A stretch of DNA of 64,000 nucleotides. Source: an uncultured Planctomycetia bacterium (GTDB taxonomy: Bacteria; Omnitrophota; Gorgyraeia; Duberdicusellales; Duberdicusellaceae). Numbering within the stretch: the stretch's first letter is position 1; each line of letters begins with the position of its first letter. The notes below the pieces were generated by a model that was not told where the DNA came from, made no database searches, and saw only the letters and a list, made by a program, of their open reading frames with translations. The stretch spans positions 95,480-159,479 of the forward strand of contig CAZWJT010000001.1 of NCBI GenBank assembly GCA_964634935.1. The letters run 5' to 3'. Made by a program: the position numbers and the translations under genes. Shown in pieces: positions 21,535-53,405 of this stretch.

Positions 21535-21671
21535 ATCAGAAAGAGCATCAAAAATCACTTAAAAATCATAAGAAAAAGTTTGTATCCATGGAACCAGGAA
21601 AATTTACGCTCAAAGATGCGATGATTATTGTATCAGATACAAGTCCGCAAAACAACATGCGTAATTCGCAC

Positions 21672-21890
21672 TTAACGCCGCTTCTTTTTTTTCCGTTCTT
21701 TACCCAACCAAAGAATCGCAAGTACCAAAAGATGTACGGGATAAAACAATAGAACAATAAGAGCAAAAACCTTATTCACTGAAACTGGCAAAATCTTGTA
21801 AAAGAAAAAACTAAGCAGAAGACTACCCAAAAAGATACCTGCCTCCCGCGCAATTTCTTGCTGAACTCTTCTGCTTCCTCTAGTTTTCAT
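21672..21890 (-). CDS. hypothetical small two-helix membrane protein with a poly-Lys/Arg C-terminal tail
   Basis: 72 aa with two hydrophobic helices, ending …KERKKKKRR. Its start overlaps the stop of the upstream HExxH membrane protein by 4 nt, suggesting translational coupling. Confidence 0.35.
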   Translation of the reverse strand: MKTRGSRRVQQEIAREAGIFLGSLLLSFFFYKILPVSVNKVFALIVLLFYPVHLLVLAILWLGKERKKKKRR

Positions 21891-22465
21891 TCCATATTCC
21901 TGGGTGATACTGCCATTTTATAGAGCACCCAACTACCCGCGATAAGACAAATAAGCATTGAAATACCAGCAAGCATGCGGAACAACAAAGAAAGTGTCCG
22001 ATCGTAGTTTAACAAGTGCATTGCTCCAAGCAAATAATTCCAATCGTGAACCACAAGAGTGCCGAATGGACTTACCAAGGGTAACTCCATTGCCCGAGCA
22101 TCTCCGACATACAGAGCAATGTAGAAAAAATTGGTTGAAAGCCAGCCAAAGCATAGAATGAGCGAGAACCAATCTTTCTGCCGAAAGAAATTAACCATTC
22201 CGAAGATTGGAGCAACGCATTGAGTAAAAGTCCCTCCCAAAACGTTCAGAAACATCCCACAATACATGAAAATAAGATGACCTAATTCGTGAATACCGAG
22301 ATTCAACGGACCAAGGACACTATTGTAAAAAGGATCAAGAAGATGCCGAACAAAAGTATACCCAAAAAAAACTAAGAATGGAAGACGCGCGATCCAATTC
22401 CTGCCTTGGCACCACGCTTCCATCTCGGCTTTTAGTACAGAAAAAAAATGCAACATTGTTTTCAT
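21887..22465 (-). CDS. polytopic membrane protein with intramembrane HExxH motif (putative zinc metalloprotease-like)
   Basis: 192 aa, about five TM segments, with HELGH embedded in a hydrophobic helix (PLNLGIHELGHLIFMYCG). No second M50 motif was identified, so the family call is uncertain. Confidence 0.4.
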   Translation of the reverse strand: MKTMLHFFSVLKAEMEAWCQGRNWIARLPFLVFFGYTFVRHLLDPFYNSVLGPLNLGIHELGHLIFMYCGMFLNVLGGTFTQCVAPIFGMVNFFRQKDWFSLILCFGWLSTNFFYIALYVGDARAMELPLVSPFGTLVVHDWNYLLGAMHLLNYDRTLSLLFRMLAGISMLICLIAGSWVLYKMAVSPRNME

Positions 22466-22526
22466 TATAAACCAAAAACCGACGAATAGAAATCATATTT
22501 GTCCGGACAGGAAAAAAAGAAAAGAA

Positions 22527-22970
22527 TTAAAATGCTGGATCATCTGACGTCTTTTTGGGGTTCACAGGAATCCAGTCCGCATTCAGCTGCACGGTTTTGG
22601 CATCGATAATATGATAGGTTCCAAACTGATATTGTATATCTTTCTTTACTTTTTTACTTTCGGAATCATGAGAAAAAACACATTCATTCCCTCCTTCGGT
22701 CTTCCAGAATCGGAATGTACCATCGGTTAGGAATTCATAATATTCTCCTTGCGTGCAAAAAAAACAAGGATAGCTCTGTGTGCACTTTTCCGGATTTTGC
22801 CAGATCCCTATGACCCAATTCGTTCGATGCTGTTTCTGCCCCTGTAATATACCATTCAAAAGCTTGCCGTCAGAAGAAACTTCCCATTGGGTAACTTTGG
22901 CAAAGCAAATCTGCATACCAAACAACCAAAAAAGAAAAAAGGCGCATTGTCTAGGTATTCTGGAATTCAT
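22527..22970 (-). CDS. hypothetical secreted Cys-containing protein
   Basis: N-terminal signal peptide (…FLFWLFGMQICFA), 147 aa, several Cys and Trp. No recognisable family. Confidence 0.35.
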   Translation of the reverse strand: MNSRIPRQCAFFLFWLFGMQICFAKVTQWEVSSDGKLLNGILQGQKQHRTNWVIGIWQNPEKCTQSYPCFFCTQGEYYEFLTDGTFRFWKTEGGNECVFSHDSESKKVKKDIQYQFGTYHIIDAKTVQLNADWIPVNPKKTSDDPAF

Positions 22971-23328
22971 GTCTCCTCCAAAAACTATAATATGTCAGTA
23001 TATACCAAAGTATACCTAGTACTATCTGGTATATACAGCGACTTGGAATAAAAAATAGGTAAATAGCATGATAGAAAGCACCATGCCATACGCAGGAAGA
23101 AAAACATACTTGATGTAGGACTCCTTGCAATACAATTCGGGTTTACGGATTTGCCAAAGAAACCCGTGCTTCCGTAGAAGGGTTATGGGATTTTGGAAGA
23201 CAGAAAAATCCTTTTTCCTAAAAAAAACCATGCAGAAAAGGTGCGCGAAGAAATTCGCCAGAAAAATGAGAAATATGCCAGAAAAAATTGTTTCGATTCT
23301 CATGTATACACTTGTGCAGAAAAACATC

Positions 23329-23710
23329 TGGTGGAGGTGCGGGGAATTGAACCCCGGTCCTTAAGTAAAATACTTAAAGTCCCTACGCGTGTAGCTTTCC
23401 TTTTAGCTTACTTAAGCCACCCCGGAAAGCAGGGTTGAACTTAAGGCAGCCTTTAAAATTTTTCCCTACCTTCAAAGGCTAACCAGGTAAAGATGAGCCT
23501 GTGCTTTAACCCCCTATGCCTTCCAGGCAAAAGACACAAGGAGCCCTACTAGTTTACTAAACAGGTAGGAGTTAACCCCATAGGAGCTACAAAAGGAGTA
23601 GCCCCAGTAAACATTGGAGTTGCGTTTAGATTTTCGCAGCTGTTTTGCCAGTGGCTGCGGCTGGACGCGCAACCTTAAGCTTTTTGCTTAAGTCGAATCC
23701 GATCACCCCC
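23329..23710 (-). ncRNA. ssrA: tmRNA (ssrA), about 382 nt
   Basis: The reverse complement starts GGGGGTGATCGGATTCGAC… and ends …GGACCGGGGTTCAATTCCCCGCACCTCCACCA (tRNA-like domain with T-arm and CCA). A candidate resume codon GCA sits 5 nt after an upstream UAA, as in the conserved UAGUC-GCA arrangement, and the open frame ends in tandem TAG TAG. Confidence 0.85.
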
Positions 23711-23801
23711 GAATTATAAAAGAGCAATTCTAGTGCAAATATACCATAGAATAATAAAAATATCAATTCCTTGAAGACACCGTCAGGCAGAAAAGAAAAG
23801 A

Positions 23802-24170
23802 TTACTGTTTGGCAAGAATATCTTTAATCGTTGCGACAAGCGCAGCAGCATCAAAAGGCTTTGAAAGATATGCGTCAACTCCCAACTTCAAGACTTTTTC
23901 TTTGTATTCAGGATTTTGCATTCCGGTAAGCACAACGATCGGGATAAATCGCGTTTGGTTAGAAAGCCTAAGGTTCTCTAAAACACCAAGTCCACCACCG
24001 CAAGGAAGCATAAGATCAAGAATAATAAGATTCGGTTTTTCTTTGTGGGTAGACTCAACACCCAAACAAGCATCTGTCGCGATAACGACTTCAAACCCCT
24101 CCGCGGTAAGACGCTTGGAAATAATCTTCCCGATATCAGGATCATCTTCAATAATCAATATTTTATTCAT
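23802..24170 (-). CDS. single-domain response regulator (CheY-like receiver)
   Basis: 122 aa: IIEDDPDIG…, phospho-acceptor region IILDLMLP, and conserved T/K (VVLTG…YLSKP). Confidence 0.8.
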   Translation of the reverse strand: MNKILIIEDDPDIGKIISKRLTAEGFEVVIATDACLGVESTHKEKPNLIILDLMLPCGGGLGVLENLRLSNQTRFIPIVVLTGMQNPEYKEKVLKLGVDAYLSKPFDAAALVATIKDILAKQ

Positions 24171-24236
24171 TGCTCCTACTGCATTTTACTGTTTTATGTT
24201 TATTGTAGCATAAAAAATAAGTAAAAAAATATTTTT

Positions 24237-25364
24237 CTAACGCTTTCTTAAATCAAGCGGCAGAATCACAGTAAACGTTGACCCTTTTGAAACTTTACTT
24301 TCAACAAAAATCTCACCGCAATGCAATTTTACAATATTGTAGCTGATCCATAAACCGAGCCCGGAGCCTTCTCCCTGGGAAGGAATGCTCTGAAACTGGT
24401 TAAAAAGCTTGGTTATAAACTCTTCGCTAATACCACAGCCTGTATCCCGAACAATGATCTTGAGAAAAGCATTGTAGGAAGTATAGGAGACTTCTACCTC
24501 TCCGCCTGCAGGGGTAAACTTAAAGGCATTACCGAGAAGATTGAGCAAAACCTGGATAATCTTTTCCTGGTCACACCAAATTTCGATTATTTCAGAGGAA
24601 GCGTTGGTCCGAAAATGGATATTTTTCCGCTCAGCCAGAGGACAGGATTCCTCGAGTACCCGCGCGAATAGCTCGGAAAAATTTACCTTTTCTCGCTTCA
24701 AAGTCATCATGCCTGATTCAATCTTTGCAATATCCAAAAGACTATTGATGAGCGCGGTTAACCGAGTAATGACGCCAAGCATAGAAGTAAGCACTTCTTT
24801 CTGCTGGGGTAAAACAGCCCCCTCAAGTTCATCGCGTAAGTTTTCTGTGTAACCTTTGATTACAGTCAGAGGGGTGCGAAATTCATGGGCGACCGTGTTT
24901 ACAAACTCAGTCTTTGCCTGACTAATCCGACTCAATTCTTTGTTTTCGCCGACTATTTTCTGCCAGAGAATGCGGTTATCTTTGATCAACTGCGCTCGCT
25001 CTACGGCGCCTTTCAATGCGAGTGTAAGAAGCTCCAAATGACCCATATCCGGTTCTTTGATCAAATAATCAAAAGCCCCTTGCTTAATGGCCTCAACAGC
25101 AATCTTTTCGCTCCCTTGACCAGTGAGGATAATTGCCGGGAGTTCCTCCGGGCGGATCTTCTGATAAATTTGACCCATCACATCAAGCCCAACCGCATCA
25201 GTAAGGAAATAATCAAGAAGCATAGCGTCATAGGTCTCTGCCCATGCTTTCTCCAGGGCTTCTTGGCCTGAAGAAGCGACAATAACTTGAATATTTTCTG
25301 ACTCCAGCCTTTGCTTTACAAGGTACTGCTGGCCTGGATCATCTTCAACCAACAAAACTTTCAT
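24237..25364 (-). CDS. hybrid response-regulator / histidine kinase (REC-HisKA-HATPase_c)
   Basis: N-terminal REC (LLVEDDPGQQ…MLLDYFL…ILTGQ), H-box VAHEFRTPLTVIKGY, N-box NLLGNAFKFT, G-boxes DTGCGI / GSGLGL. Confidence 0.8.
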   Translation of the reverse strand: MKVLLVEDDPGQQYLVKQRLESENIQVIVASSGQEALEKAWAETYDAMLLDYFLTDAVGLDVMGQIYQKIRPEELPAIILTGQGSEKIAVEAIKQGAFDYLIKEPDMGHLELLTLALKGAVERAQLIKDNRILWQKIVGENKELSRISQAKTEFVNTVAHEFRTPLTVIKGYTENLRDELEGAVLPQQKEVLTSMLGVITRLTALINSLLDIAKIESGMMTLKREKVNFSELFARVLEESCPLAERKNIHFRTNASSEIIEIWCDQEKIIQVLLNLLGNAFKFTPAGGEVEVSYTSYNAFLKIIVRDTGCGISEEFITKLFNQFQSIPSQGEGSGLGLWISYNIVKLHCGEIFVESKVSKGSTFTVILPLDLRKR

Positions 25365-25378
25365 AAATTGCTCCTTGT

Positions 25379-27547
25379 TTATAAATTCAATTTCTTAGGT
25401 ATGGTAAAGTAAAATTTTGTCCCGCTGTCCGGCTCTGATTCAACCCAAATATTCCCACCCTGGGAAGTAACGATCTTTTTTACGATTGTAAGCCCCATGC
25501 CCATCCCTGCTGCAACCTGAGGTTCGAGGCGTTGAAACACTTGAAAGATACGATGAAAATTTTTGGGGTGAATTCCCTTGCCGTTATCTTTTACAAAAAA
25601 CTTGTATTCAGAAAAAAGCTCTTCGCAGCCAACTTCGATTATTCCCCCTGTTGGTTTATCCATATACTTTATGGCATTATCAATAAGATTGGTAAAAATT
25701 TCATTCACCCTTACTTCATCGCCGACGATACTGGGTAACGGATGAATAACCAATTGCAACTTTTTTTCTTGAAGTGCATGCGACAAGAACTTACTGATAC
25801 TTGTGAGGTTTTGGTTTAAATCTATCTTATTTTCAGCACGAGGCTCCGTGGTCACCCGCGAAAGCTTCAGGAGACTCTGCACCAAAAGGCTTATTTTCTT
25901 AATACCTTCATCAATAAAAGAAAAATATTCCGATGGTGTCTTCCCAGCAGTCTCCCCTATAGTACCCAAAGTTTCTTTTATTTTATCGCTAAAACCCTTA
26001 ATATTCATAATCGGAGCCTTCAGATCGTGCGAGACGATATAGGTAAAATTTTCCATCTCTTGGTTTACGTCTTCCAGTTTTTTGTTCAAAATCTCCATCT
26101 CGCGAGCGCGCTTCTCAAAGCGGAGGTCTCGAGCTATTAAAACCATTTCTTGCCGTTCGTTCTCGGTGCTCGTTATTTTTTTACCGTTTACGTTCACCGG
26201 GATATATTCTTTTTGCTTTGAAAGAAAAAATAAATCCTTGTCGACAAAGCAATCCTGCCGAAAAAGACCTTCGAGTTCTTTTTTATCTTCATCAAGAGAT
26301 AAAGAATTTCGGATATTGAGAAAGGAGAAAACCGACTGCCCCACCACTTCTATATTCTCATAGCCTAAAAGACGGAGAAAAGCTCCGTTCACAATCCGAA
26401 CAGTAAAGTCTTTGTCAAAAACCAGCAAGGCTTCAAGCATGTTTTCGATAATACCTTTGAGTGATTCGTTTGACTGACGGAGGTTTTTTTCCGAATAGGA
26501 CAGCTCCATTGCCATTCGATTAAAGTTCTGGGCAAGCTCTCCGATCTCATCCCGAGTTCCGATCTCAACCGCTTCAGGAACTTCTCCTTTTGCGAGCGCC
26601 TTGGTTTCTTCAGAAAGAATTCGTAAGGGTATGGAGATACGACGGGAAAAAATAATACCAATGGAAGCCGCGGCAATCGAAAGAAAAATGAGCACAACAA
26701 CGATAAGGGTTAAAGCATTCTTTTCCGCCTGGATAATACTATCAATGGGAATGCTGATAACGCACGCCCCCTGAGCACGCCCATCCTCATCTTTCAAGGG
26801 CACAACTTTTGATTCAAGTAAAAAACCTCCTTCGAGATCAACTCGAACATTCTTAATCTCATCCTCAACCTTCTGACCCTGGTATACATACGATGCTTCA
26901 CCAAGATACGGCACGCGATTACCCTGACTATCAGCGATGCTCGTCGCAACCATCTTTTTGTGAAAAACAAAACTTATGTCTACGCCGGATATCGATTTGA
27001 TATAGTCGGCAATCACGTGGTCAATGACTTTTTCTAAAACCAATTTTTCAAAAAGCGGCGCCTGTTCTACAGAAAGACTGATTTCCTCGCGTAAATACAA
27101 AGAAGATCCCGCGGCAAAGATATCAATCTTTTGATTGTTTTTGTCCGCCGGCAACAACAGGGCAAGCTTTTGTTCATCTTTTTTTATCCCATAGAGGGTT
27201 TCCCTCTGGGGTCCGTAAAAACTTCCGTCTTTGGCAATAAAATAAATTTTTGTGAGCGCTAATTCAGTTTTCTTCAGCGCAAGAATTTGTTCCAGAAAAT
27301 CTGTTTTCGCTGTCCGCAAATATAAAACAATGTCCGGATCTTTCAGTAGTGACTCACCTTGCGTACGAATCGTCTGGCGGTAGTCAACAAGCGTATTCAA
27401 GGCAACCCTCGAGGCAAAAACAGCCTTATCATCAAGAATGCCAAACATCGTTCTACTCACAGTCTTAAGGGTGATCAACCCAACAAAAAATGGTGGAATA
27501 AGCGCAATGCCAGCTAAAAGAATCGGCAGCTTATGGCGTATTCTCAT
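25379..27547 (-). CDS. transmembrane sensor histidine kinase (periplasmic sensor-HAMP-PAS-HisKA-HATPase_c)
   Basis: Two TM helices flank a roughly 260-aa extracytoplasmic domain. A HAMP-like linker, a PAS-like segment (IIENMLEALLVFDKDFTV…), H-box SHDLKAPIMNIKGF, N-box NLIDNAIKY and G-boxes DNGKGI / GMGLTIVK follow. Confidence 0.8.
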   Translation of the reverse strand: MRIRHKLPILLAGIALIPPFFVGLITLKTVSRTMFGILDDKAVFASRVALNTLVDYRQTIRTQGESLLKDPDIVLYLRTAKTDFLEQILALKKTELALTKIYFIAKDGSFYGPQRETLYGIKKDEQKLALLLPADKNNQKIDIFAAGSSLYLREEISLSVEQAPLFEKLVLEKVIDHVIADYIKSISGVDISFVFHKKMVATSIADSQGNRVPYLGEASYVYQGQKVEDEIKNVRVDLEGGFLLESKVVPLKDEDGRAQGACVISIPIDSIIQAEKNALTLIVVVLIFLSIAAASIGIIFSRRISIPLRILSEETKALAKGEVPEAVEIGTRDEIGELAQNFNRMAMELSYSEKNLRQSNESLKGIIENMLEALLVFDKDFTVRIVNGAFLRLLGYENIEVVGQSVFSFLNIRNSLSLDEDKKELEGLFRQDCFVDKDLFFLSKQKEYIPVNVNGKKITSTENERQEMVLIARDLRFEKRAREMEILNKKLEDVNQEMENFTYIVSHDLKAPIMNIKGFSDKIKETLGTIGETAGKTPSEYFSFIDEGIKKISLLVQSLLKLSRVTTEPRAENKIDLNQNLTSISKFLSHALQEKKLQLVIHPLPSIVGDEVRVNEIFTNLIDNAIKYMDKPTGGIIEVGCEELFSEYKFFVKDNGKGIHPKNFHRIFQVFQRLEPQVAAGMGMGLTIVKKIVTSQGGNIWVESEPDSGTKFYFTIPKKLNL

Positions 27548-28742
27548 CAGTAATCTTCCGAGCTAATGAATCCACGTCTTGAAAAATTTTCATGGCGTTC
27601 TTCTTTTCCTGTTCAAAAGCACCCTGGATTTCCTTACCGATATATTCCCATGACTGCTGATAACCTTCTTTTTGGACATAAGCCGCAAGGATCTTCTGAA
27701 TTACCGAAAGAAAATATCCGGCACTCTGCCAATCTGTCCATCGTAAAGAACGCTTGATAAAATAAAGATTCTGGGCCAAAAAGAATGATTCGCCTGCTTT
27801 TTCACCAGAAAGCCTGACCCCCTCTTGAATTACGTACTCCTGGAGCGGATTAAAAAAATCTCGCCGGTTTTTCACGAATGCGTCCTGAGAACCCGAAGCT
27901 AAAACAAAAACTTTTTTTAAAAAATCTCTTTCTTCCCCGCCAATCTCACCAGACTCAGCCCCGTTTTGAGCAAAATCGGTAATTCGCTTCAGAATACGCA
28001 ACGTATATTCTCGGTCTTTTCTCTGGACGCTTGCGCCGAGCGCGTTAAGCTTCTCAAGCAAAAACTCCACTGAAAGAAACCGTCCCCTCTGGTCTTGTTT
28101 CTCCGAGGCGTATTCCTGAAGGAAAAAAACCAATTGATCAATCTTGCGGTTAAAACGCTCCATATCGGCAGTATCAATGAGCGATTCAAAACTTACCGCT
28201 TGGAGAGTATCTTTTATCTGATCAACCATCTTTTTCTCGGAAACACCTAACTGCGCAGAAGAAAACAACGCAAGAATATCAAGCAGCTTATTGACTCGAA
28301 AAGTACAAAGAACATAATCCTTCTCAAGCACCAGTGAATCAATCACAGCCAACTGACGAAGCACATAGAGAACGATCTTTTCTTGGGAATGCTTTTTCCC
28401 AAAAGCTATATGGAGTAGAGCTGACTGAAAATCCTGAGTATTAGAAAAAAGAAGCGGCTTATCTGCGGCAAGGGCAAGGTTATTCTCAAGATTTGCGAAA
28501 TGATAATTTAATCGGCGAAGTTCTTCTCCGCTAAAATCCGCATTTCTTTCCTTGAAACGGGAAAATTCTTCTTCAAAAATTTCAAGCAAAGGAGGAATAG
28601 TACGAAAAGAGCCATGTGCAACATCAGCTTCAACATCCGCAAGAATAAAAGAAAGAGTGCAATTACCGGAACTGATATCATCAGCAAACAACAAAGCTGG
28701 GAATAAAAACACCAGAAACAAGCACAATGCTTTCTTCCTCAT
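27531..28742 (-). CDS. hypothetical secreted/periplasmic all-helical protein, first gene of the sensor-kinase operon
   Basis: Signal peptide MRKKALCLFLVFLFPALLFADD. About 400 aa rich in Leu/Glu/Lys with no recognisable family. Start placed at the Met preceding the signal peptide, which abuts the smpB stop. Confidence 0.4.
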   Translation of the reverse strand: MRKKALCLFLVFLFPALLFADDISSGNCTLSFILADVEADVAHGSFRTIPPLLEIFEEEFSRFKERNADFSGEELRRLNYHFANLENNLALAADKPLLFSNTQDFQSALLHIAFGKKHSQEKIVLYVLRQLAVIDSLVLEKDYVLCTFRVNKLLDILALFSSAQLGVSEKKMVDQIKDTLQAVSFESLIDTADMERFNRKIDQLVFFLQEYASEKQDQRGRFLSVEFLLEKLNALGASVQRKDREYTLRILKRITDFAQNGAESGEIGGEERDFLKKVFVLASGSQDAFVKNRRDFFNPLQEYVIQEGVRLSGEKAGESFFLAQNLYFIKRSLRWTDWQSAGYFLSVIQKILAAYVQKEGYQQSWEYIGKEIQGAFEQEKKNAMKIFQDVDSLARKITDENTP

Positions 28743-28746
28743 TCTT

Positions 28747-29199
28747 CTACCGGTTGAACCTCCGTAACGTTCTTTGCACATAGCGTTTTTCATCCCGTTC
28801 TTTAATGGCCTTGCGTTTATCATATATCCGCCGGCCTTTTCCAAGGCCAATTTCGAGCTTCGCCAGGCCCTTTTCAGTAAAGTATACCTTAAGCGGAACG
28901 AGAGTAAATCCTTTTTGTGAAACAAGGCCCCATAAGCGATGGATTTCTTTCTTATGAAGAAGCAATTTTCGCTCCCGATATGGATCTTCCTTGAAATAAG
29001 AAGTTTTGTCGAACTCGGAAATATGCATATTGGAAACCCTGATCTCGCCATTCCGTAAATACGCATAACTGTCTTGGATATTGACTCTCCCTAAGCGCAA
29101 CGATTTCACCTCGCTTCCTTTCAATTCAATCCCGGCTTCGAAAGTTTCAAGAATTTCGTAGTTTAAGTACGCCTTCTTATTTGTGCTTATAATCTTCAT
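28747..29199 (-). CDS. smpB: SsrA-binding protein SmpB
   Basis: NKKAYLNYEILETFEAGIELKGSEVKSLR… and a C-terminal basic tail typical of SmpB. Start set at MKIIS…. Confidence 0.85.
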   Translation of the reverse strand: MKIISTNKKAYLNYEILETFEAGIELKGSEVKSLRLGRVNIQDSYAYLRNGEIRVSNMHISEFDKTSYFKEDPYRERKLLLHKKEIHRLWGLVSQKGFTLVPLKVYFTEKGLAKLEIGLGKGRRIYDKRKAIKERDEKRYVQRTLRRFNR

Positions 29200-30152
29200 A
29201 AGCCGGCTGAAAGATAAAAAATCTTGATCCAAACCGGAAGGGTCAAAATACTCCCCAAATGGCTGAAAAGCAAATTTTGTGCAATAAACTCAGCATCAAG
29301 ATTTTTCCAGCGAGCAATCACGGTTAAGGATACCGCTGAGGGTACTGCCGCCTGGATGATGAGAAATAACCCAAATATGTCTTGAATACGCAGCACAAGA
29401 AGCACAAAAAAGAAAACAAGAGGAACAACAACAAGCTTTCCAAACGAAACAATACATAACCCGATGAAACGATCAAAAGTAATACCCCGTAAGGCAGAAC
29501 GGGAAAGTTCATATCCTAGCAGAATCATAGAAAGAACAAAACTGACACTTCCGATCGCAGAGAAACAATCTAATACTGTGGCGGGGATAAATCGGTTCAA
29601 TCCCACGAGAACAAAAAGAAGCGATATCACGGTAGCCTGCGTTGGAAGATTGAAAAAATCTTTGAATTCCAGCTTTGTTTTGGAATTTTTAAAGAAAAAA
29701 TGTGGACTCACTGACCAAAAAATAAAATTAAAACCAATAAGATAAATAAAAATATACACCAGAAACATATCCCGAAGACTCTCCGGAAACATAAAATGTG
29801 CAAGCACCATCGGTAAATACCCGCAATTCTGGAAAGCAAGCAGCGAAACTGTTTCTCGAGGAGGAAACCTCTTGGAAAACAAATAAACAAATAAAAATCC
29901 TAACGCTCCCCCCACGATACAGATAAGAAAACTCCAAGCAATAATAAGAAACCAATGGGGCCGCAAAGCGAACGAAAAATTCCGGGAAAGTTCAGAAATA
30001 ATCAATGCGGGGATACAAACATTAATCAGGACATCGGTAAGAAATTGTGCCCTGGTTTCATCAAGAAACTTCTTATGCTGAAGGAAAAAACCAAACCCCG
30101 CCAAAAGCACAAGCTGAAAAACTACCCCAAAAAGAAAGTTCATACTTCCCAT
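29196..30152 (-). CDS. AEC-family (auxin efflux carrier / Mem_trans) permease
   Basis: 318 aa, about 10 TM helices in two inverted halves. N-terminus FGVVFQLVLLAGFGFFL…LINVCIPALI is typical of AEC/malate-permease-like transporters. Confidence 0.55.
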   Translation of the reverse strand: MGSMNFLFGVVFQLVLLAGFGFFLQHKKFLDETRAQFLTDVLINVCIPALIISELSRNFSFALRPHWFLIIAWSFLICIVGGALGFLFVYLFSKRFPPRETVSLLAFQNCGYLPMVLAHFMFPESLRDMFLVYIFIYLIGFNFIFWSVSPHFFFKNSKTKLEFKDFFNLPTQATVISLLFVLVGLNRFIPATVLDCFSAIGSVSFVLSMILLGYELSRSALRGITFDRFIGLCIVSFGKLVVVPLVFFFVLLVLRIQDIFGLFLIIQAAVPSAVSLTVIARWKNLDAEFIAQNLLFSHLGSILTLPVWIKIFYLSAGL

Positions 30153-52312: not shown

Positions 52313-53405
52313 CTACCCGTTCTTTACTGTCCGTAAGTACCCGTTGATAAACTGATCTAAATCTCCATCTAGAACCTTCAAGGCATCACTCGTCTCTAAG
52401 TCAGTCCGATGGTCCTTTACCAGAAGATAGGGATGAAGCACATAAGAACGGATTTGAGAACCCCACTCGATCTTATCTTTACTCCCCCCAAGTTGTTCAA
52501 TCTCGCGTTTCTGTTCATCTACCATTTTCTTATATAATCGTGACTTAAGAATCGCCATGGCAACCTGCTTATTCTGATACTGGGATCTCTCATTCTGACA
52601 CGCCGAGATTATCCCTGTCGGAATATGAATAATCCGTACTGCCGATTCAATCTTGTTGACATTCTGCCCGCCGTGTCCACCAGCACGGAACGTCTCGATG
52701 CGTAAATCATCTGGATTGATCGCTACTTCCACTTCTTCGCCAACCTGAGGAATAACGTCAACAGAAGCAAACGAAGTATGCCGGCGTTTGTTCGCATCAA
52801 AAGGAGAAATCCGGACTAAGCGGTGCACTCCTCGTTCAGCTTTTAAATATCCGTAGGCATACTGCCCTTCGACTAAAAAAGTAATGTTTTTAATACCTGC
52901 TTCTTCTCCTTCGAGAATGTCTGTCACCTTTAGAGTAAAATCTTTTTTCTCGACCCAACGACCATACATCCGAAACAGCATGCTCGACCAGTCGCACGCC
53001 TCAGTTCCACCTGCGCCTGCATTAATACTTACAATCGCAGAGTTCCGGTCAAATTTATCCGAAAGGGTGACGCGCAGTTCAAAACTATCAAGCTGAACAG
53101 TGAGGGTTTGTAGTTCTTGCTCCAAATCCCGAAGAAACTCTGGCTCATCAGCAGAAAAAGCAAGGAGTTCCCCTAAATCATTTATTTTGCACGAAAGCTC
53201 CTGCCAACTGTCAAATTTTTCCTTAAGCTCCTTTAGCTCCGAAATAACCTTCTTGCTTTGTTCGCGGTTATCCCAGAACCCTTCCTGGTTCATCAAATCC
53301 TGTAACTTCTCTTTCTGGCTCTTGCATTTTTCAACGTCAAAGAAAGTCTCCCAATTCTTTGATCTTAGCAAGTAACTTTTGCTGCATACGCGTTAAATCT
53401 TCCAT
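52313..53405 (-). CDS. prfB: peptide chain release factor 2 (RF2) with programmed +1 ribosomal frameshift
   Basis: GGQ motif ([12 protein letters not shown]). The frame-0 start is ATG at 53405, encoding [22 protein letters not shown] and then TGA. The CTT TGA C slippery site lies at about 53333-53339, preceded by the SD-like GGGAGA. The +1 frame continues [11 protein letters not shown]…, matching the 352-aa ORF. Confidence 0.9.

Follow-up and report, generated by a model that had tools for sequence, protein, structure and literature searches.

Does a bacterial transfer-messenger RNA (tmRNA) gene whose apparent tag peptide ends in asparagine really encode that peptide, or has its reading frame been misassigned? 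The locus that raises this question lies at positions 23329 to 23710, on the minus strand, of a 64,000-nt stretch of a metagenome-assembled contig (CAZWJT010000001.1, positions 95,480 to 159,479), which we call the window. An earlier reading of the letters (the sequence-only reading) had called the tmRNA unambiguous and had picked out a frame of 24 amino acids (aa) that opens on a GCA after an upstream UAA, ends ...CLVN, and is closed by TAG TAG; it offered two options, a real noncanonical tag or a wrongly assigned frame. We conclude with considerable confidence that an uncultivated diderm bacterium has its functional ssrA gene at 23329-23710, that the tag is read from the GCA at 23623-23621, and that this tag is one of a lineage-specific family whose members are long and do not end in Ala-Ala.

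The ssrA gene and the frame of its tag

The identity of the gene, which the sequence-only reading had taken as certain, is borne out by two programs: the Rfam covariance model RF00023 matches it with 162.8 bits (E 2e-64; gathering score, 47) over model positions 1-374 of 374, and ARAGORN also detects a tmRNA at 23329-23710 on the minus strand. The 5' and 3' ends quoted in that reading, GGGGGTGATCGGATTCGAC and GGTTCAATTCCCCGCACCTCCACCA, are the first 19 and the last 25 bases of the reverse complement. The features of the locus, listed from the upstream side after the gene as a whole, are as follows; L286 is a relative described below.

23329..23710, minus strand: ssrA, a one-piece (standard-form) tmRNA gene of 382 nt with its CCA end encoded (ARAGORN, Rfam RF00023, and pair covariation against L286)
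23738..23766, minus strand: promoter-like site, TTGATA, a 17-nt spacer, and TG-TATATT, ~25 to 30 nt upstream of the mature 5' end
23692..23710, minus strand: 5' part of the tRNA-like domain, acceptor strand GGGGGUG followed by GAUCGGAUUCGAC (Rfam alignment)
23635..23666 (gene positions 45-76), minus strand: pseudoknot 1, stems CCAG/CUGG and GCAGC/GCUGC (Rfam alignment)
23624..23628 (gene positions 83-87), minus strand: UAAAC frame-setting element, U at -5 and A at -4 (U-A rule, PMC2481249)
23621..23623 (gene positions 88-90), minus strand: resume codon GCA (Ala), aligned to the GCa of the RF00023 consensus
23552..23623, minus strand: tag frame of 24 sense codons, ATPMFTGATPFVAPMGLTPTCLVN, translated from GCA and homologous to the L286 tag
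23583..23605, minus strand: 8-bp hairpin within the tag frame (GGGGCUAC-UCCUUUU-GUAGCUCC), in a 32-nt insertion relative to the Rfam consensus
23545..23569, minus strand: helix 5 (CCUAC ... GUAGG), which closes the tag frame just before pseudoknot 2 (Rfam alignment)
23546..23551, minus strand: tandem stops UAG UAG, of which the first immediately follows the Asn codon AAC and opens the 3' side of helix 5
23329..23353, minus strand: T arm, 3' acceptor strand, and CCA (GGUUCAAUUCCCCGCACCUCCACCA; Rfam alignment)

The acceptor stem has 7 bp (GGGGGUG/CACCUCC), the third of which is the G3-U pair that marks alanine identity and which is kept in both the window and L286; the T arm reads CGGGG-UUCAAUU-CCCCG. 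The promoter-like site matches the consensus at 10 of 12 positions, a count not above chance for the region, and it is plausible by position only. Because GGUUCAAUUCCCCGCACCUCCACCA occurs a single time in the window, with no repeat of the ssrA 3' end to mark an island, no island boundary is definable there.

Three lines of evidence place the predicted resume codon on GCA 23623-23621. The Rfam alignment sets its consensus resume codon on this same GCA and yields no conventional ...AA tag; the U/A rule points to it as well, mutagenesis in E. coli having shown that a U and an A upstream set the frame and that translation resumes 4 nt downstream of A86 (PMC2481249); and the codon lies 12 nt after pseudoknot 1, which ends at gene position 76. 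Read from here, the gene encodes ATPMFTGATPFVAPMGLTPTCLVN followed by UAG UAG, which is the 24-aa frame with the ...CLVN end that the sequence-only reading had put forward, and the RF00023 alignment requires a 32-nt insertion inside it. From the same point the other two frames read QLQCLLGLLLL* and, over 35 codons, on into pseudoknot 2; neither ends ...AA. An open frame of 24 codons at 42% G+C is not improbable by itself; what supports the frame is where its resume codon lies and how it compares with relatives, not its length.

The most informative relative was reached through SmpB. The gene for this tmRNA partner protein, located in the window by tblastx comparison, served as the anchor, and its best homolog (P0033, 63% identical) lies on contigs L286, L287, and L288, all three of which carry an identical tmRNA. 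That tmRNA and the window's share 65.7% identity across 370 aligned positions. Of 86 predicted pairs, 21 have changed on both sides and yet remain paired, among them pairs in helix 2, pseudoknot 1 (one stem pair C-G in the window and U-A in L286), helix 5 (one pair A-U in the window and G-C in L286), and the T arm, which argues that both tmRNAs are under structural selection. L286 also has a nested hairpin (GGGGCC/GGCUCC) at the same place as the window's 8-bp hairpin in the tag frame.

ARAGORN, called independently on L286, reports a tag in the same frame, ATPFTGAFAAPFAGVMPAYLPN, that ends Leu-Pro-Asn. The two peptides align as ATPMFTGAT--PFVAPMGLTPTCLVN (window) and ATP-FTGAFAAPFAGVM---PAYLPN (L286), and the gaps that fall inside the frame in the nucleotide alignment are of 3 nt each. 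Where the two share the ATP.FTGA block, their nucleotides differ at three positions, each time by a synonymous third-position change (CCA/CCT, ACT/ACA, and GCT/GCC). The global BLOSUM62 peptide score of window against L286 is 53 in this frame (frame 0), versus 13 and 30 in the other frames, and none of 5,000 shuffles attained the frame-0 score. At the end of the frame the window reads GUA AAC UAG and L286 reads CCA AAC UAA, so that in both AAC stands at the 3' end of the helix-5 loop with the stop directly after it. The UAAAC before GCA is found in L286 and also in a more distant relative, L293. Since the L286 tag is homologous in the same frame, the frame is correct and the unusual end is inherited rather than the result of error. 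Of the two options that had been offered, the covariance alignment, the U-A and 12-nt spacing, and the homologous L286 tag favor the real noncanonical tag; against a misassigned frame, the Rfam resume codon is the same GCA and no frame gives ...AA.

Tags of relatives and of Bipolaricaulota

The window's lineage is an isolated one; relatives were sought by DNA-pattern scans of genome, metagenome, and viral collections, and then with SmpB as anchor. Scanning the viral collection with the tmRNA 3' end returned mostly two-piece alphaproteobacterial and cyanobacterial tmRNAs and bare attachment sites, with no relatives, and viral scans by the 5' pattern and by an SmpB profile gave canonical tags only. 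The combined 5' and 3' pattern found, in the genome collection, a Pseudomonadota metagenome-assembled genome (MAG) with a canonical tag and a Candidatus Endomicrobiellum genome, neither of them close; the 5'-end pattern found at least 120 metagenome loci, with no close relative among the matches listed (by BLAST and MAFFT identity). The response regulator beside ssrA, used as an alternative anchor, led to homologs that were at most 60% identical and not syntenic, and of six SmpB homologs fetched, three lacked a tmRNA within reach. The other tags reported by ARAGORN, from more than 150 loci, almost all end in alanine, and the rest are evident miscalls, mostly in interrupted or partial genes.

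The more distant relative, whose SmpB is 57% identical to the window's (L292, L293, and L294), has a 463-nt tmRNA. Its Rfam alignment in L293 reads UAAAC|GCA, and the tag, ANDNSRLLADRYSKVPAFAGAAMLPAALAIP, ends ...LAIP, that is, in proline. Taken together, the predicted tags form a lineage-specific family of 22 to 31 residues that start ATP(M)FTGA or AND..., with a core of Pro, Phe, Ala, Gly, and Met (PF.(A/G)..M..P(A/T).L) and termini other than Ala-Ala: LVN in the window, LPN in L286, and AIP in L293. A tmRNA of Candidatus Endomicrobiellum (Elusimicrobiota; L043:1427-1818) has the UAAAC context too; by analogy it would resume on AAC and encode NNDKFVPMQSVKPFMGFGAMPIAA, which, read by eye, has 24 residues, a PF.G..MP-like core, and a canonical ...IAA end. 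The long-tag family may thus extend beyond the window's lineage, but the homology match is too weak to claim.

ARAGORN gave a false tag for the window tmRNA and did not detect those at L293:6729-7191 (121 bits with Rfam) and L043:1427-1818 (179 bits), and its built-in tag list recognized none of the unusual tags. Because three tmRNAs were miscalled or missed in this way, such tags may be underreported; automated tag annotation is not to be trusted for such lineages, for which a covariance model and relatives are needed.

One scanned locus, L119:1259-1322, is an element of 64 nt in which the first 19 bases of the window tmRNA (GGGGGTGATCGGATTCGAC) recur exactly, followed by a short hairpin, a T arm, and CACCTCCACCA. 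It is a tRNA-like domain without tag frame or pseudoknots and resembles the ~65-nt tmRNA forms that lack a coding sequence (PMC11915505).

Asparagine-terminated tags also turned up elsewhere. Among the matches listed, five metagenome tmRNAs (L070, L155, L102, L165, and L167; four distinct sequences) end ...PSLN or ...YSLN, with the tags AENNYAFSVPAYSLN, ANQYAVAAPSLN, ADNLAFAVPSLN, and ANTTTANYAFAAPSLN. We assign them to Bipolaricaulota on the basis of a gene neighboring the tmRNA in L165, which is 69 to 70% identical to proteins named Candidatus Acetothermia or Bipolaricaulia. Serine is encoded in these tags by AGU, UCC, or UCU and leucine by UUA, CUG, or CUA; that Ser-Leu-Asn is kept across codon families (AGU/UCN and UUA/CUN) points to selection on the peptide. 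The leucine codon (CUA, UUA, or CUG) is followed by AAC and then by UAG or UAA, and, as in the window, the C-terminal Asn is written AAC at the 3' end of the helix-5 loop, while the stop begins the 3' strand of helix 5. Their 5' end, GGGGGUGA..GGAUUCGAC, is also like the window's, but is not independent evidence because the search pattern imposed it. Unlike the window tag, these tags have 12 to 16 residues, a canonical A.N.YAFAA-like body with a PSLN extension, and come from another phylum. Nonalanine tags with a terminal Asn thus genuinely occur in at least two lineages without cultivated members. A specific kinship between the window tmRNA and those of Bipolaricaulota was considered and rejected, since identities of 47 to 49% (L155, L167, and L070) are background; the shared Asn end may accordingly be convergent.

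Two further observations concern L165. Its segment 6230-10028 holds a 16S rRNA gene, a tRNA, an RNase P RNA, and the tmRNA within 4 kb, the 16S rRNA gene having an 86-nt insertion near model position 210; and a gene for an NfeD-type membrane protease starts 12 nt after the tmRNA, probably by coincidence.

Fate of the tagged protein and alternative readings

Going by the G3-U identity pair and the established mechanism, the window tmRNA would be charged with alanine and, as in known systems, would bind SmpB and then enter stalled ribosomes. Translation would resume on GCA 23623-23621, in the frame fixed by the U-A four bases upstream; 24 codons would be read up to the UAG UAG on the 3' side of helix 5, where RF1 would terminate at UAG, and rescued proteins would carry (A)ATPMFTGATPFVAPMGLTPTCLVN.

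How such proteins would be degraded is less straightforward. The canonical ClpXP degron terminus is of the Ala-Leu-Ala-Ala type, with a hydrophobic last residue; the window tag ends Cys-Leu-Val-Asn instead. The ...ALAA signal read by ClpX and ClpA has been presented as conserved in all bacteria but Mycoplasma, whose long ...AFA tags are recognized by Lon (PMC3985003), and the curators of the tmRNA database speak of a hydrophobic last residue "as usual," Carsonella being the sole charged case (PMC4131195). Since the window tag lacks the ClpX-type ...LAA-COOH determinant, its degradation signal is probably recognized in another way, as the sequence-only reading had reasonably suggested. Our preferred guess, drawn by analogy and offered tentatively, is that the conserved hydrophobic, proline-rich interior of the tag is recognized by a Lon- or FtsH-type protease or by an adaptor; a coevolved ClpX that accepts Leu-x-Asn-COOH strikes us as less likely than this and, taken by itself, as improbable. 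More broadly, it is conceivable, if doubtful, that Leu-x-Asn-COOH and the Ser-Leu-Asn-COOH of Bipolaricaulota represent a distinct class of trans-translation degron, read by a protease or adaptor that has coevolved away from ...LAA-COOH. Candidate readers of such a class may include a ClpX with an altered pore or RKH region, a PDZ-type reader of C termini, or Lon.

The alternative that survives best accepts the frame and disputes the function: the tag would be no degradation signal, the tmRNA would mainly free ribosomes, and the tag would drift under weak or RNA-level constraint. Several observations fit such drift. The C termini LVN, LPN, and AIP differ and there are several codon insertions and deletions among the relatives; AAC and the stop keep a conserved place in helix 5, the Leu codon (YUA) being paired there with the stop (UAR); and the final two tag codons of E. 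coli have a role as RNA, in recruiting RNase R (PMC4176180). Drift is harder to square with an ATP.FTGA block that varies by synonymous changes only, with a Pro/Phe/Gly/Met core common to the window, L286, L293, and possibly the Endomicrobiellum tmRNA (L043), or with a Ser-Leu-Asn end that Bipolaricaulota have kept in spite of their different codons, and we regard rescue without degradation as unlikely.

Some points nevertheless weigh against our own interpretation of the window tag. All six Asn-terminated tmRNAs use AAC in the helix-5 loop, adjoining a stop that pairs with the Leu codon; because AAC and the stop are fixed in helix 5 in this way, part of the Asn conservation could be at the RNA level. 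One close and one distant relative were reached, and with ends of LVN, LPN, and AIP the Asn is not invariant in the lineage, while its likeness to the Bipolaricaulota end may be convergence at an overall identity of only ~47 to 49%. Tagging and degradation of proteins by the window tmRNA are themselves predictions, and the Omnitrophota-like placement of the lineage, given below, draws only on named SmpB matches and a common gene order.

That the real tag lies in another frame, or starts from another codon, and has a conventional end is now highly improbable, and we regard this reading as largely refuted. It takes its support from the different tag that ARAGORN reports for the window:

23626..23658 (gene positions 53-85), minus strand: ARAGORN's false tag, AATGKTAAKI*, which spans both stems of pseudoknot 1

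and from the +1 frame, which encodes an 11-residue hydrophobic peptide, QLQCLLGLLLL, with its stop in the 3' strand of the 8-bp hairpin. We rejected AATGKTAAKI because it runs across the stems of pseudoknot 1 and because the same frame collapses in L286 to AAG* only; ARAGORN, which the sequence-only reading had proposed as a means of fixing the resume codon, would thus mislead here. The +1 frame would begin on CAA rather than on a G-initial codon, contrary to the U-A ruler (PMC2481249), and its stop would leave helix 5 ~45 nt downstream; nor is it conserved, L286 having QLLLQGPSRLHLLE* and the score being the 13 given above against 53 for frame 0. An ...AA end occurs in none of the frames.

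That the odd tag reflects a sequencing or assembly error or a decaying tmRNA copy is scarcely credible: the contig is metagenome assembled, and the window proteins that were looked up are all singletons at 90% identity among ~15 billion sequences, leaving no second copy to compare, but an identical ortholog that agrees with the window in its frame and its Leu-x-Asn end is present on three contigs from different records, the RF00023 score is full length, 21 pairs are kept by compensatory change, smpB is intact, and a single-base insertion or deletion would give a conventional tag in no frame.

Gene neighborhood, host, and comparison with known systems

The partner gene and the genes that separate it from ssrA are the following.

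28747..29232, minus strand: smpB, encoding the tmRNA partner protein (Pfam SmpB, 191 bits, profile positions 1-142 of 143)
23802..28746, minus strand: cluster between smpB and ssrA, comprising an open reading frame (ORF) without assignment, a PAS/HAMP histidine kinase, a receiver-kinase hybrid, and a single-domain response regulator (Pfam)

SmpB also matches its NCBIfam equivalog model (195.8 bits against a cutoff of 130). The longest smpB ORF has 161 aa, while the database form has 150 aa and starts at 29199 (P0032). A longer ORF, 27531-29066, overlaps the gene and partly masks it; the 5' part of this longer ORF is probably spurious. The gap between smpB and ssrA is 5036 nt in the window, versus 100 nt in L286 and 87 nt in L293. 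Gene order is otherwise common to the window and L286-L288: SmpB, ssrA, tRNA-Ser(uga), SNase, pyruvate kinase, SAM_HAT, PP-loop ATPase, an integrase-family recombinase, and poly(A) polymerase. The stretch from ssrA to tRNA-Ser(uga) (window 21535-23328, minus strand; L286:4642-6491) differs between the relatives: in the window it holds three small membrane or secreted ORFs without a Pfam match, one of them of 192 aa with an HELGH motif, and in L286 its genes are a DUF2283 gene and an RHH/PIN toxin-antitoxin pair. L286 also carries an NfeD/ClpP-class protease gene ~2 kb upstream of smpB, probably a coincidence.

No clp, lon, ftsH, sspB, or prc gene was found within the 64-kb window. The sole release factor gene in the window, beside secA (52313-53371, minus strand), is that of RF2 (prfB, 484 bits); since the tag's UAG stops need RF1, RF1 must be encoded elsewhere in the genome. 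The prfB ORF begins with TTG and matches its profile only from position 9, and the usual 5' programmed frameshift may be present.

The host is a diderm, as the window encodes Lnt, LptE, a BamD-like protein, and a lipid A acyltransferase. Several of the top SmpB matches are named Candidatus Omnitrophica or Omnitrophota, and one MAG contig among them, L291, has the Mem_trans-SmpB adjacency seen in the window; from these named matches and the gene order, the lineage is probably Omnitrophota-like. Nearly all genes of the window (positions 1-64000) lie on the minus strand, and GC skew stays below zero from end to end (-0.04 to -0.18), a pattern that fits a single replichore read against the leading strand.

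In most respects the window tmRNA is built like that of E. coli (tag ANDENYALAA; RF00023), with a G3-U tRNA-like domain, pseudoknot 1, a U-A element, and a GCA 12 nt downstream (PMC2481249); like canonical tmRNAs generally, it closes its frame at helix 5, has three further pseudoknot regions, and has an smpB partner. It departs from them in a tag of 24 residues rather than ~10, in ending LVN rather than in the ALAA read by ClpX and ClpA (PMC3985003), in the 32-nt insertion that puts a hairpin within the frame, and in having UAG as both stops.

Two known systems are comparable in the tag itself. Mycoplasma tags, like the window's, are long (>20 residues) and without an LAA end, and interior determinants plausibly replace the C-terminal ClpX signal; their terminus, however, is hydrophobic (Ala), whereas the window's is polar (Asn), the tags share no sequence similarity, and Mycoplasma lacks ClpXP, ClpAP, and Tsp, while the window system is known from 64 kb. 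With its conserved hydrophobic, proline-rich interior and variable polar end, the window tag would seem by analogy to follow the logic of Mycoplasma more than that of E. coli. The tags of Carsonella ruddii end in lysine, a nonhydrophobic last residue as in the window, and they too were found only by comparing relatives after standard tag finding had failed (PMC4131195). Carsonella, in contrast, is an extremely reduced endosymbiont with a degenerate SmpB, whereas the window has a complete SmpB and tmRNA in a normal, free-living-like gene set.

In the 2025 tmRNA database, tag frames have been curated for 434 tmRNAs of Omnitrophota and 88 of Bipolaricaulota (PMC11915505), and similar sequences are therefore probably on file already. 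Our literature search found no account of Omnitrophota or Bipolaricaulota tmRNA tags, of Asn- or Pro-terminated tags, or of their readers.

Against the ...ALAA norm, then, the last tag residue is asparagine in two uncultivated lineages and proline in one relative. Should such tags indeed direct degradation, the protease or adaptor that reads them must differ from the E. coli model; the lineages would then offer a natural experiment in the coevolution of degron and protease and, possibly, an orthogonal degradation tag for engineering.

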